Positions 8,096-12,226 of a stretch of DNA of 19,471 nucleotides are shown piece after piece (within the stretch, counting starts at the first letter, position 1; every line of letters begins with the position of its first letter). A program made the translations under genes and the position numbers. The stretch is from a virus (taxonomy: Duplodnaviria > Heunggongvirae > Uroviricota > Caudoviricetes): IMG/VR virus record IMGVR_UViG_2645727743_000022. One strand, written 5' to 3'. Under the pieces are notes generated by a model, which searched no databases, was not told where the DNA came from, and worked only from the letters and a program-made list of their open reading frames with translations.

Positions 8096-8286
8096 GGACG
8101 CACCTCCGCCGTAGTTACGTATTTAACCGGGCTACCTTTCATTGAGATGGTTTCACACATCTCTGCCGCTTTCAGTTCCGCTGTTTTTCTGGATTTATAG
8201 CGACGGTGCCAGACAGATACATCCGTGCGAACTGATACATCGTTTCTGTATTCCGTAGTGGAGATGATGATTTCGTAACTAATCAT
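8092..8286 (-). CDS. Hypothetical protein (64 aa), translationally coupled
   Basis: ATG 8286 overlaps the stop of the upstream Rha-like gene (ATGA). Confidence 0.5.
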   Translation of the reverse strand: MISYEIIISTTEYRNDVSVRTDVSVWHRRYKSRKTAELKAAEMCETISMKGSPVKYVTTAEVRP

Positions 8287-8834
8287 GGGCGAACCTCCTT
8301 GTCAGAACCATTCAGCCTGGAATCAACAAGTGCAGCGCCAAAAACAGCATCACCAACACGGTCGTACAGTTTGCTAGCCAGCGGAGATTCAACGGCCTTA
8401 AGCATTGGATAAAGCTGGCTTGTCCAGATTTGATGGATTTCACGCAAATGCAGGTATACGCCTCTGGCGTTTCGTGCGACAGCTGACATATCAGACGCAT
8501 CGGCACCTGATAAACTCTTCTCCATCAGGTTAAAGGCGTTGATGTATGCCTCTTTGAACCGGGCAGCACGTTTGCCAGTAAAGCCCATAGCAAGGAACGC
8601 GAAGCCATCACGGGTGATTTGATAGCAAGGTAGTTTGCGGCCTGATGCGTCGGTGTATTCACTTAACACAAAATTGTGTTCAGTAAATTCAGCGGAACAT
8701 TCGAGGTTTCTAATTCTATCTAAAACCCGCTCATGCCGTTTAGTAAAGTAATTAGCTACTGCAAGAGATGTGGTGACAACGCGACCATTGATAATCGTGA
8801 TTTCAGGGTGAGATTGGGTTGGGAGAGTAGTCAT
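8283..8834 (-). CDS. Phage regulatory protein, Rha family (about 183 aa from ATG 8834)
   Basis: N-terminus after M102 of the long ORF: MTTLPTQSHPEITIINGRVVTTSLAVANYFTKRHERVLDRIRNLE matches the Rha N-terminal signature. The 101-codon open frame upstream (8835-9137) is G/P-rich, lacks an RBS and is probably not translated. Confidence 0.7.
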   Translation of the reverse strand: MTTLPTQSHPEITIINGRVVTTSLAVANYFTKRHERVLDRIRNLECSAEFTEHNFVLSEYTDASGRKLPCYQITRDGFAFLAMGFTGKRAARFKEAYINAFNLMEKSLSGADASDMSAVARNARGVYLHLREIHQIWTSQLYPMLKAVESPLASKLYDRVGDAVFGAALVDSRLNGSDKEVRP

Positions 8835-9221
8835 GGTGACAGCCCCTATGTTGAATTCAATGAACTCACCACCAAGGCTTTCCACGACCATATAGGTGGT
8901 GAGACGTACAGGGGTGGAAATACCGGTCAACATAGAACCCGGCCCAACCGAAGTTGGCCCTGCACGCCCCACCATAATTTGGGCGTAACGATGCTCATGA
9001 CACGAAAAAACCGCATGAGCGCGGTTGTGCTCTATATTGAATTTCGGGTTTCCACGCCCGGCACCCGCTTTATAAGGTGCCTGAGCAGTGTAACGTCCCG
9101 GAATTGCAGAATCAATATTTGGTCTTGAAATGATCATATAGCTGCTGATATCTTTAGAACTGTTCTTGGATGTTTCGGAGCCGTTTTATGCGAAACAGCT
9201 CCCCGTTATTGATGTTGAGTG

Positions 9222-9246: not shown

Positions 9247-9959
9247 CATCGCTGCCAACCAATAACCTGAAATAACCCCATTTTCGGGTGATACCAGCGA
9301 GTCCCTCGCGGTTCTGCTTCCTCCATAACCCGATAAAAAGCAGCCATAAACGGTTCCACAGCAACAATTGCGCGACGTGACAACAATCCGTCCGGCGTCA
9401 TGAACTCATGTGTGTCTGTAGGAATTTGATAGGCGTTCACCAGATTGCGGCATTTATCATCTGACAAACCGGTTTTTGCTTTCAGTTGGCGATATCCGGC
9501 ATAGCCCTCACGAATAGTGCCCTTTTTAATTTGCTCGACTGTTTCAGCAACGTGGCTGACTTTTTCTTCCACCTGAGTGATCCGTTTCTGCTGACGAACG
9601 GCTTCAAGAGCCATCGCAGCAACCATTTCAATTTCGCTCATTGGCTTACGGATCTGTTCTTCCAGTTCACGCCAGCGATCTACCAGGCGAGCAGTGAATT
9701 CAGGGCAGAGCTGTGCGACGACAATGATGCTGTCGCGCTTACCTTGTTCTCCTTCAAACAGGTAATGCTCATATTGAACTTTAAAACCTAAGTTATTGAT
9801 TTTCTCGGAAACAGCCATTGGCGGTTTCCGGATGATGTTTTTAGCAACCAGGCGTTCGATACTACGTTTAACATCTGAGTGCTGACTACCCACCAGCTCT
9901 GCGATCTCAACGCTGGTCATGGATGCTTTGTCGTTAAAAATTGCGGTGTTCACTGCCAT
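9246..9959 (-). CDS. Phage regulatory protein, Rha family (about 237 aa)
   Basis: ATG 9959 preceded by TAAGGAG. N-terminus MAVNTAIFNDKASMTSVEIAELVGSQHSDVKRSIERLVAKNII fits the Rha family; C-terminal domain is antirepressor-like. Confidence 0.7.
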   Translation of the reverse strand: MAVNTAIFNDKASMTSVEIAELVGSQHSDVKRSIERLVAKNIIRKPPMAVSEKINNLGFKVQYEHYLFEGEQGKRDSIIVVAQLCPEFTARLVDRWRELEEQIRKPMSEIEMVAAMALEAVRQQKRITQVEEKVSHVAETVEQIKKGTIREGYAGYRQLKAKTGLSDDKCRNLVNAYQIPTDTHEFMTPDGLLSRRAIVAVEPFMAAFYRVMEEAEPRGTRWYHPKMGLFQVIGWQR

Positions 9960-10072
9960 CTCCTTACGGATAAATTCTTTTAAGATTCCGCACATTCGTA
10001 CTTATTGGTGCCGAACCTTCCTTCAGTTATCCTTTTGATCCCTATAAACAAAAGAACCAAAGGAGGTTCGAC

Positions 10073-10366
10073 ATGAAAGTTCAGGCCGTTGGTTTATTCT
10101 GGTTTCGCGATGCGATTCAGTATCATGAGCTCAAAAATATTTTTACTGATGCTGATGTGCTCTCCGACAGTTACACCGAGTGGAAACACGACGCTGAAAA
10201 ATTGATTAAGCGTGTCGAAAGAAGCGGGCAACGAGTTATTAAAGTTGAAGCGGATACAGCCGAGTTCATCACCTGGTGTACAAGCGAAGGCATTGGAATC
10301 AATGCCGAAGGTAGAATGCAGTTCGCATCCTTTAAGGCTTACCAACAACTTCTCAGCGAACGCTAA
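10073..10366 (+). CDS. Hypothetical 97 aa protein on the strand opposite to the rightward operon, between rha and cro
   Basis: Consensus SD AAAGGAGG 6 nt before ATG 10073. Product MKVQAVGLFWFRDAIQYHELKNIFTDADVLSDSYTEWKHDAEKLIKRVERSGQRVIKVEADTAEFITWCTSEGIGINAEGRMQFASFKAYQQLLSER is well balanced and globular-looking. A 7 bp GC-rich hairpin (GGGGCAA 10374-10380 / TTGCCCC 10390-10396) sits right after the stop. Mutually exclusive with minus ORF 10094..10426. Confidence 0.55.
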   Translation: MKVQAVGLFWFRDAIQYHELKNIFTDADVLSDSYTEWKHDAEKLIKRVERSGQRVIKVEADTAEFITWCTSEGIGINAEGRMQFASFKAYQQLLSER

Positions 10367-10436
10367 TGTGATTGGGGCAATCGAAATGGTTGCCCCATCG
10401 TATTTAATAGTTATTTTTTCGCTCATATCACCACCA

Positions 10437-10709
10437 TCACTTCTCGTCCTCTGTGTGCGCTAAGCTTGGATTTGAAATTTTGCGTAACGAATCAGGAATT
10501 CCATCTTCAGGGTGAGGATAAAGATCTGGCCTTAAGCCATGTGGCGTGACCTTCCATGCAACTACTTCACATACGCGTAAAACGAAACGAGCAGGAATTG
10601 TGTTTTTTGAAAACCACTGATTCACCGCTTGCGGCGTCACACCAAGATTTCGCGCTATGGCATTTTGCGCAATTAATGCACGAAGTTTGTCGTAATCATT
10701 TCCTTTCAT
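10437..10709 (-). CDS. cro: Cro-like HTH regulator (Cro/YdaS family, 90 aa)
   Basis: HTH segment LRALIAQNAIARNLGVTPQAVNQWFSKNTIP; divergent from the cI-like gene across a 133 bp operator region. Confidence 0.7.
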   Translation of the reverse strand: MKGNDYDKLRALIAQNAIARNLGVTPQAVNQWFSKNTIPARFVLRVCEVVAWKVTPHGLRPDLYPHPEDGIPDSLRKISNPSLAHTEDEK

Positions 10710-10842
10710 AACAAAGCACCAACATTAACTTTATAAATCAAGAATACATCAAGTTTAAATTAACATGCAAGTTGCAAAAGGATCGAATACACTAAAATCA
10801 AGTAAAGATTTATCCTTGTAAAGAAACCCACAGGATTTGGTC
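10710..10842. promoter_or_regulatory. Immunity operator/promoter region (OR-like) between cro and cI
   Basis: 133 bp AT-rich divergent intergenic region. ATCAAG(T) repeats at 10737-10742, 10748-10754 and 10797-10803; the same half-site occurs as an inverted pair at the pL-like promoter (11631-11647). Exact -35/-10 elements could not be fixed by eye. Confidence 0.5.
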
Positions 10843-11532
10843 ATGAAGAACGTCAAAAACACGGAAAATCGAATAGCCGCGATGCTGAAAGCAAAAGGAT
10901 GGACTCAGGCTCAACTGGCCCGCAAGTTAGGTGTGAGTGCGCAATCAGTGCAGTACTGGACAACAGGAAAAACATTTCCACGGAGTGATAAGCTCGCGCA
11001 TTTATCCGAGATTAGCGGTTATCCACAATCCTGGTTCTTAGGTGAAGACTCCTCACCAACCTTTTCCTCGCAAGAGAAACACCAGACAAGAACAGATAGC
11101 GTCGTGTTTAATGTCCTTGATGTTGAGTTTAGTTGCGGTGATGGAACTCATGTCCGTGGTGACTTGATAGATGTAGTGCGCTCAATAGAACTTGATCCTG
11201 AATATGCCCGACGCCTTGTTGGAAATCGGGCATTCAAAAATATAGGAATAGGTAACGCCAGAGGAGACAGTATGGCTCCCACAATCTCACCTGGCGACCT
11301 TCTTTTTCTTGATAAGACAGTAACTTATTTTGATGGCGATGGCATTTATGCATTTTGTTTTGATGGAGAATGCTACGTGAAAAGACTTCAAAAAATTGGA
11401 AGCAAAATCATGGTGTTATCTGATAACCCCAATTATCAACCATGGAGCATCGAAAAAGAGGGGTTAGCTCTGCTTTATATCCAGTCTAAAGTGATCTCAT
11501 CAGTACCATTCAATATAAACAGATTTGGTTAG
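10843..11532 (+). CDS. cI: Prophage repressor CI-like (N-terminal HTH plus C-terminal S24 LexA-type peptidase domain, about 229 aa)
   Basis: HTH IAAMLKAKGWTQAQLARKLGVSAQSVQYW; S24 motifs GDSMAPTISPGD (Ser nucleophile) and CYVKRL (Lys). ATG at 10843 (the ORF track starts at TTG 10837). Divergent from cro. Confidence 0.85.
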   Translation: MKNVKNTENRIAAMLKAKGWTQAQLARKLGVSAQSVQYWTTGKTFPRSDKLAHLSEISGYPQSWFLGEDSSPTFSSQEKHQTRTDSVVFNVLDVEFSCGDGTHVRGDLIDVVRSIELDPEYARRLVGNRAFKNIGIGNARGDSMAPTISPGDLLFLDKTVTYFDGDGIYAFCFDGECYVKRLQKIGSKIMVLSDNPNYQPWSIEKEGLALLYIQSKVISSVPFNINRFG

Positions 11533-11677: not shown

Positions 11678-12226
11678 ATGAAGACACTAAAAGCAACTCC
11701 AGAAACAACTAATTTTATCAACTGCGGCTGTGTTACGCTTGAAGGCTTAGAACTTGATTCCTTTGCATTAAATATTGCAAATTTGCTAAGTGCTGTACGC
11801 ACATTCCATCTTCTGGATTGTGCTCGCTCAAAGGAACTGGGCATTGAGGTAATGGAATTTATCCATGAATATGCCCTATCTGCGGCTTCTCCTGCACAAC
11901 AAAAACAATCCTTCCCTAAAAGCTGGCTGGTTAACCTTCGCACCCAACGCGAAGCCTGCGGCTTAACAACCGCCGAACTCGCCAGGCTGCTCGATCTCGA
12001 TGAAGAAATCATCATTCAGTGGGAGAGCGGAGAGTATGAACCAACCATCAGTATGCTTATCCCACTGGCAAATATTCTTGGCTGCGATCCGATGTGGCTG
12101 TTAACTGGCGAGGTTACTCCTCCGGAGCAACCAAAAAGTGAGGAGCAGCAACACCATGACGCATCTCAACAAGTTTGCCCCTTATCTCGCGAAGCTCTTC
12201 TGCGGAAGAACCAATACCAATGGTGA
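11678..12226 (+). CDS. Two-domain protein: N-terminal domain of unknown function plus C-terminal XRE-type HTH (182 aa)
   Basis: RBS GGTGGGT before ATG 11678. XRE HTH WLVNLRTQREACGLTTAELARLLDLDEEIIIQWESGEYEPTISMLIPLANILGCDPMWLLTG at residues ~85-145. N-terminal residues ~20-75 are paralogous to the C-terminus of the next gene. Not arginine-rich, so not N-like. Confidence 0.65.
   Translation: MKTLKATPETTNFINCGCVTLEGLELDSFALNIANLLSAVRTFHLLDCARSKELGIEVMEFIHEYALSAASPAQQKQSFPKSWLVNLRTQREACGLTTAELARLLDLDEEIIIQWESGEYEPTISMLIPLANILGCDPMWLLTGEVTPPEQPKSEEQQHHDASQQVCPLSREALLRKNQYQW

Follow-up and report, generated by a model that had tools for sequence, protein, structure and literature searches.

The 19,471-nucleotide (nt) stretch of viral DNA considered here over its whole length (hereafter the window; IMG/VR record IMGVR_UViG_2645727743_000022, class Caudoviricetes) is, judged by gene order, a lambdoid Escherichia coli prophage, which from right to left encodes the integrase, the pL-side genes, cI, cro, a small inserted cassette, two rha-type genes, replication genes with DnaD/O-like, DnaC-like and DnaB products, Q, a methylase and tRNAs. 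The cassette, with its gene for a protein of 97 amino acids (aa), is the element in question. With approximate limits at 9954-10440 it is oriented along the plus strand between two minus-strand genes, rha (9246-9953/9995), recognised by a Pfam Phage_pRha match, and cro (10437-10709), whose product matches Pfam YdaS/P22_Cro and is thus of the Cro/YdaS helix-turn-helix (HTH) type; beyond cro the cI-type repressor with its S24 peptidase, assigned by family match, is encoded on the plus strand (10837-11532). Over positions 9900-10800 several complete E. coli genomes, among them those of strains SCU-105 and APEC E19035, carry prophages with 100% identity to the window, and there the plus-strand open reading frame (ORF) already has a RefSeq entry as hypothetical protein WP_000867914.1.

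An earlier sequence-only reading of this locus had described the plus ORF, its ribosome binding site, a downstream hairpin and a competing ORF on the opposite strand, and each of these elements is found where it was described. The sequence and the ORF list give a 97-aa frame at 10073-10366 with a TAA stop at 10364-10366, located, as the Pfam matches confirm, between the two minus-strand genes rha and cro. Its ATG at 10073 is preceded, at a distance of 6 nt (spacer TTCGAC), by the Shine-Dalgarno sequence AAAGGAGG at 10059-10066, and on its 3' side follows a hairpin rich in guanine and cytosine (GC) with the core GGGGCAA/TTGCCCC (10374-10380 and 10390-10396). The minus-strand ORF of 110 codons (10094-10426) starts with an ATG 10 nt past the cro stop with GGTGGTGAT in front, and is in exact codon register with the plus gene.

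Coding capacity of the two strands

On comparative sequence evidence, the plus ORF is a real and widely conserved phage gene with putative expression signals of its own. Its product matches PHROG 4753, a family without assigned function and without a Pfam or NCBIfam counterpart, over the full length (residues 1-97 on profile positions 1-97 of 97, E 1.8e-49, 166.8 bits), and a phmmer search against 1.84 billion representatives retrieved 994 family clusters (clusters at 50% identity) at E<=1e-3, mostly of 95-105 aa, with the exact protein being present on at least 1000 contigs. The codon periodicity that the sequence-only reading had proposed as a check points to the plus strand, with variable sites distributed 30/13/70 over plus codon positions 1/2/3 among 15 distinct alleles. 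Also the comparison of conservation frame by frame, proposed there as well, gives a clear answer, as in relatives at 77-82% protein identity the ratio of non-synonymous to synonymous substitution rates (dN/dS) is 0.03-0.10 for the plus frame, with synonymous sites near saturation, but 0.6-1.4 for the minus frame. When distant homologs such as those of Klebsiella phage Kp4865-4, phage EKP1 and Burkholderia phage Bcep176 are included, plus translations outscore minus translations by BLASTP in every distant pair, and similarity of the minus translations is gone between distant pairs. Moreover, the minus frame is broken next to an intact plus frame by four stops each in the homologous loci L046 and L058, by two in L059, by one in L045 and by seven in L047, which encodes a 506-aa protein. 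The expectation that only one of the two ORFs is real is supported in that the plus product is the sole conserved protein.

The minus ORF, by the same comparisons, is an antisense shadow of the plus gene without the status of a second conserved protein. The exact codon register implies that minus-frame stops correspond to TTA, CTA and TCA codons of the plus gene, and the minus ORF's own stop is plus codon Leu8 (TTA). Scans of Pfam, NCBIfam, PADLOC and PHROG gave no family match for its product, and the exact minus protein was not found in a collection of about 15 billion proteins. With codon-complement shadow ORFs in general it shares that it is open where the real gene avoids TTA, CTA and TCA, and that dN/dS is about 1. 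Unlike plain shadow ORFs, it is in several relatives start/stop-coupled to both flanking genes, far above chance. Conservation at the protein level of the minus N-terminus (…DGATISIAP…; DGA..IAP) was considered and rejected: the motif, which lies beyond the plus ORF, is the product of the GGGG/CCCC hairpin with its T-rich tail, and its Ala->Glu and Ala->Ser changes arise via compensatory stem changes (L055, L003). As judged from these sequences, the constraint at the minus N-terminus is one on RNA structure, not on a protein.

In the deposited annotation of phage EKP1 (OM284015.1; L003, 4064-4396, minus strand) the 110-aa shadow ORF is annotated and the plus-strand homolog omitted, which is probably a mis-annotation. 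EKP1 is labelled an Elizabethkingia phage; its neighbouring genes and the upstream element of its cassette resemble the IMG/VR loci L035 and L038.

Putative expression signals of the cassette

Within 75 nt upstream of the ATG, two blocks are conserved in relatives in which synonymous sites are saturated. They can be aligned as a putative plus-strand sigma-70 promoter at 10005-10033, assigned by this conservation, with the -35 element TTGGTG (10005-10010), a 17-nt spacer and the -10 element TATCCT (10028-10033). The -10 box occurs in relatives as TATTCT, TATCCT or TATCTT, is preceded by an extended TGn in L035/37/38 and L002, and the elements can still be made out where protein identity has dropped to 32-46% (L002, L003, L051), so that we read the blocks as a sigma-70 promoter with a start near 10040. 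A CI operator within the cassette promoter was considered and rejected, as the promoter has none of the repeats (AAATCAAG...) found between cI and cro. The Shine-Dalgarno core AAGGAG/GGAGG is conserved in L005, L035, L037, L038, L003 and L051.

Spanning promoter and start codon, a long imperfect inverted repeat (10007-10078) pairs the promoter spacer CGAACCTTCCTT with the Shine-Dalgarno/start region AAGGAGGTTCG; its arms at 10009-10023 and 10059-10073 are 80% complementary. As RNA it folds at -22.4 kcal/mol (z -2.7) on the plus strand and at -29.9 kcal/mol (z -3.8) on the minus strand, and relatives retain it, with a small number of compensatory or wobble changes. A search of Rfam gave no match in 9900-10900.

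On the 3' side, the hairpin and its T-rich tail (10373-10423, the hairpin itself at 10373-10397) form a plus-strand element that a terminator scan, RNA folding and conservation jointly mark as terminator-like. The stem extends to 10 or 11 pairs. Its folding energy as plus-strand RNA is -18.6 kcal/mol (z -3.7), a value reached by none of 200 shuffles, compared with -14.2 kcal/mol for the minus strand. Six sequences form the complete set of 10 pairs as plus RNA and no more than 7-9 of 10 as minus RNA, since a G.U pair of the one strand turns into A.C on the other; with full pairing confined to the plus RNA, the hairpin would be an element of the plus transcript. The compensatory stem changes mentioned above lead to GGGGAAA/UUUCCCC in L055 and GGGGAG/CUCCCC in L003.

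The cassette as an insertion and a probable moron

An artificial query joining the start of rha to the end of cro matches contiguous DNA in several E. coli prophages, namely in 94-3024, O145 RM10425, JNE170426, ATCC 43886 and O111:H8 8E, in which the annotation places rha directly after cro and from which the cassette is thus missing. In ATCC 43886, a 4-nt overlap joins the cro stop to the rha ATG (L060, 1565-1568), and the arrangement in strain 94-3024 is similar. The cI of ATCC 43886 carries the same accession, WP_000800136.1, as that of the cassette-bearing SCU-105, and throughout the empty-site prophages cI is the same or near-identical. Upon alignment of the window with the empty site, homology breaks off at about 9953 and resumes at about 10440, from which it follows that about 490 base pairs (bp) have been added exactly at a translationally coupled cro/rha junction. 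By the same alignment, the insertion has replaced the C-terminus of cro and provided rha with a new AAGGAG-GTG start.

Extra DNA between genes that are adjacent in relatives is a defining property of morons as described by Cumby, Davidson & Maxwell (2012; PMC3594210), of which the HK97 gene 15 element is an example, and antisense placement within lytic genes is described as characteristic of such accessory loci (PMC7067206). The cassette shares with phage morons this position between genes which are neighbours in related phages, promoter-like and terminator-like elements of its own (the latter at sequence level a hairpin with T-rich tail), a placement that would allow expression from a repressed prophage, and a spread among mosaic phages with differing neighbours. 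It differs in being placed antisense within the early-right operon, where this adjoins cro, and not in the late or tail region. Taken together, the region is probably a moron, a self-contained transcription unit of about 490 bp set backwards where cro meets rha in the early-right (pR) operon of this lambdoid E. coli prophage. This degree of confidence applies jointly to the moron unit, its expression, the protein reading and the minus ORF as shadow. The plus gene itself was previously annotated as hypothetical, and the moron is a known kind of element.

In the mechanism that these elements suggest, the sigma-70-type promoter TTGGTG-17-TATCCT would drive a short leader with the consensus Shine-Dalgarno sequence, from which a cytoplasmic protein of 97 aa would be translated, and the plus-strand-specific hairpin with T-rich tail would end or stabilise the transcript ahead of cro. 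As the operon which the unit faces is silent in lysogens, and as no repeat resembling the cI/cro operators is found in its promoter, expression would be expected in the repressed prophage. After induction, convergent transcription from pR would oppose expression of the cassette.

Predicted fold and function of the protein

An AlphaFold model built from an alignment of 83 homologs has a predicted local distance difference test score (pLDDT) of 95.4 and a predicted template modelling score (pTM) of 0.85. It represents a small alpha/beta domain of beta-alpha-alpha-beta-alpha-alpha topology in which all 97 residues are accounted for. By residue count, about 13 Lys+Arg stand against about 15 Asp+Glu, which makes the protein slightly acidic, and no signal peptide or membrane segment is seen on reading its sequence. 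A search of PDB sequences with the family profile found none below E 0.02, Pfam recognised neither a family nor a partner domain in 83 family members and 10 longer or fused members, and a literature search on WP_000867914 and phrog_4753 found no paper. With Foldseek, BFVD returned uncharacterised viral proteins alone, and matches in the PDB were weak, the best being 2ox6 (SO3848) at E 0.48.

By fold resemblance of the model, the closest solved relative would thus be SO3848 (PDB 2OX6), an Aca2/YdiL-like regulator. In SO3848, an HTH occupies the N-terminus, and the C-terminal part is an extended dimerisation domain that has two parallel strands and additional helices (PMC8434428), a topology which fits beta-alpha-alpha-beta-alpha-alpha. 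Foldseek gives no aligned range, and it is on this topology that the match most probably is to the C-terminal dimerisation domain. HTH family scans found no HTH in the plus protein, and the predicted fold accounts for all of its residues. Lacking the N-terminal HTH and any detectable sequence or profile similarity to the Aca2/YdiL (DUF1870)/SO3848 proteins, it is not a member of this family; what the confident fold offers is a link to the dimerisation domain of Aca2-like regulators without their DNA-binding half. Some family proteins contain two or three tandem copies of the domain (P0018, P0025, P0037), which suggests a self-associating module. Our best guess on function, and the weakest step of the interpretation, is that of a lysogen-expressed accessory or regulatory factor which acts by protein-protein binding, with superinfection exclusion or the modulation of a host or phage regulator as possible roles.

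Weighing of the moron reading and its alternatives

A number of results weigh against the interpretation of the cassette as an expressed moron. A distinct base composition, a hallmark of morons, is not seen, as the GC content of the cassette (0.434) does not differ from that of its neighbours (0.44-0.48; cro 0.443, rha 0.477), with 0.429 for cI and 0.471 for the whole window. A strict consensus scan found no promoter in 9800-11000, so that the promoter assignment rests on conservation; this interval must, however, also hold pR and pRM, and the negative scan carries little weight. The T-tract behind the hairpin is non-canonical and weak in several relatives, so termination may be partial. For either ORF, Pfam, NCBIfam and PADLOC gave no significant match, which leaves the biochemical function a guess, and a profile of the 83 sequences aligned by hhalign to E. 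coli YdiL reached a probability of 0.2%, by which a sequence relation to the regulators suggested by the fold is not detectable. Finally, the sequence-only reading had named a broken plus frame beside a conserved minus frame as the pattern that would speak against the plus gene; distant homologs show the opposite, but in two near-identical alleles the plus ORF carries a nonsense mutation (W37* in L026, E36* in L033) with the minus frame intact. The start of the minus ORF is lost in two other close alleles, L017 and L027, and shallow allele depth favours neither frame. We take the nonsense alleles of the plus frame to reflect decay of an accessory gene that at least some lysogens can do without.

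These two alleles are also among the points that can be raised for the reverse assignment, according to which the true gene is the minus ORF, whose product would belong to the pR operon and be translationally coupled to cro, with the plus ORF as its shadow. The minus ORF is co-directional with the operon, it starts 10 nt behind the cro stop, and it is the annotated gene in EKP1 and called beside the plus gene in one NCBI assembly. Most substitutions, however, fall on minus codon position 1, the minus similarity remains below the plus similarity in every comparison, and the interrupted minus frames, the dN/dS near 1, the hairpin-derived N-terminal motif and the absence of a family or an exact protein match described above are all hard to reconcile with a minus-strand protein. 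This assignment is already contradicted by the comparative sequence data, and we consider it very improbable. The sequence-only reading had, on the other hand, likened the plus transcript to that from lambda pRE and suggested co-expression with the repressor. Developed further, this would make the unit a pRE- or OOP-like antisense regulator, transcribed from about 10040 through the terminator, antisense to cro and into cI, which would favour lysogeny and leave the ORF secondary. The geometry does fit: like lambda pRE, paQ and OOP, the unit lies downstream of cro, against pR transcription and directed toward cro and cI, many relatives carry it immediately past a cro-like gene, and, with a T-tract that is weak in several relatives, some transcripts may run on into cro as antisense RNA. 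The CII-activated promoters of lambda and P22 have TTGC-N6-TTGC direct repeats that straddle a poor -35. On reading the sequence, no such repeat is found at the -35 region (10000-10020 is ACTTATTGGTGCCGAACCTTC), with the limit that the cII-like protein of this phage (gene at 11678-12226) belongs to phrog_4836, a family other than the lambda/P22 CII type, whose site may differ. What distinguishes the cassette from the lambda transcripts is furthermore the strongly conserved protein with its consensus ribosome binding site, for which purifying selection and a family of about 1000 clusters argue that it is the selected product, and the conserved, plus-strand-specific hairpin in front of cro. The gene is oriented opposite to cI in L002 and in the context of P0031, lies far from the switch in L046 and L049, and is found in relatives near int/xis or beside terminase and tail genes; co-orientation with the repressor is hence no conserved property, and the proposed co-expression is not supported. 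A primary role as antisense regulator is in our view unlikely, if less so than the reverse assignment of the coding strand.

Of the alternatives, the most serious does not dispute the plus gene but holds that both strands are functional, with the minus ORF acting as a relay that carries ribosomes from cro over the insertion, restores the coupling and avoids Rho-dependent polarity. That cro and rha overlap by 4 nt in the empty-site phage gives such a relay something to restore, and in the window the minus ATG directly past the cro stop, behind GGTGGTGAT, would be its entry. In tightly embedded relatives (L005, L035/L038, L051, L057, L042) no stop interrupts the in-register antisense frame from one flanking gene to the other, and the frame is coupled at both ends: the bridging ORF starts at, or within 26 nt of, the stop of the upstream gene, with Shine-Dalgarno-like sequences or ATGA overlaps, and its end overlaps, or lies at most 15 nt from, the start of the downstream gene, the junctions consisting of ATGA/GTGA overlaps or gaps of 1-26 nt. 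Under a null in which the plus protein is fixed, synonymous codons are resampled and flanks are shuffled, a bridging ORF has a probability of 0.0035 in L005, 0.024 in L035, <0.00025 in L051 and 0.0047 in L057, which are mid-GC lineages. The flanks of the tightly embedded loci contain 3 stops in about 464 codons of the bridging frame, compared with 28/460 and 34/458 in the other minus frames, and TTA, CTA and TCA make up 2 of 83 Leu+Ser codons in embedded genes versus 14 of 90 in non-embedded homologs. As the sequence of the antisense ORF evolves neutrally (dN/dS ~1), it is proposed to be kept open as a ribosome relay, and the pattern hints that the openness of the shadow ORF, not its sequence, is selected. 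Against this stands that in the window the relay is, on its sequence, only partial: the 110 codons run out at 10094, which leaves 141 nt to the rha start (9953), and are followed by the long hairpin (10078-10007) and then by the fresh AAGGAG-GTG start of rha. The ORF is similarly truncated in L003 and L055, and its start is lost in the close relatives L017 and L027. In addition, the lineages are independent only up to a point, GC content confounds the comparison in part, and elements in the flanks are conserved for other reasons. The window's minus ORF may be translated as a pass-through after cro, and a functional relay is conceivable enough to be taken seriously, while we judge a plain shadow somewhat the better account. 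For tightly embedded antisense cassettes in general we propose, with similar reserve, that an open relay ORF without constraint on its sequence is kept on the opposite strand, and that coupling and Rho protection of the early operon are thereby preserved. If this were true, the relay would serve as an adaptor through which an essential operon can house a moron in reverse orientation, and the bridging antisense ORFs would point to a general means by which phages accommodate backwards insertions in such operons.

Homologs in other phages

To return to the cassette as a probable moron, its homologs were found in about 15 distinct contexts, mostly as a lone reverse-oriented gene or within a two-gene reverse island, and often directly after a cro-like gene. 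The recurring property across relatives is that of a lone reverse-oriented unit inside an operon, and the partners in the two-gene reverse islands come from unrelated PHROGs of unknown function. PHROG 4753 is an unstudied family of about 1000 clusters at 50% identity that is repeatedly located beside the lysis-lysogeny switch of temperate phages, and it may reasonably be considered for the role of a lysogen-expressed factor in exclusion, anti-defence or regulation.

One of the multi-domain homologs mentioned, P0018 (L047, 1052-2572, 506 aa), has three tandem domain copies with coiled-coil-like linkers between them. Its gene is divergent from an AbiEi_4 antitoxin-family gene, and no recognisable phage genes are among its neighbours.

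Other features of the window

On the far side of the rha gene adjoining the cassette, two structured RNAs were matched at the Rfam gathering level on the minus strand, a C4 antisense RNA at 8892-8979 (82 bits) and isrK at 9004-9080 (62 bits). Both are located inside the 5' 'Ash' part of the minus-strand ORF 8283-9137, whose product matches Phage_ASH at residues 16-112 and Phage_pRha at residues 122-207. The arrangement at 8892-9080 resembles that of P1 c4/ant and Gifsy-1 isrK/anrP, and, going by these matches, the Ash part of the ORF may represent RNA genes by which an antirepressor-like Rha gene is controlled.

A second lone reverse-oriented gene is found at 2784-3971 on the plus strand. It encodes a protein of 395 aa with an N-terminal DUF4236 and lies between Q (4139-4504) and the DNA methylase gene (1038-2096), both on the minus strand, as another moron-like unit of this prophage.

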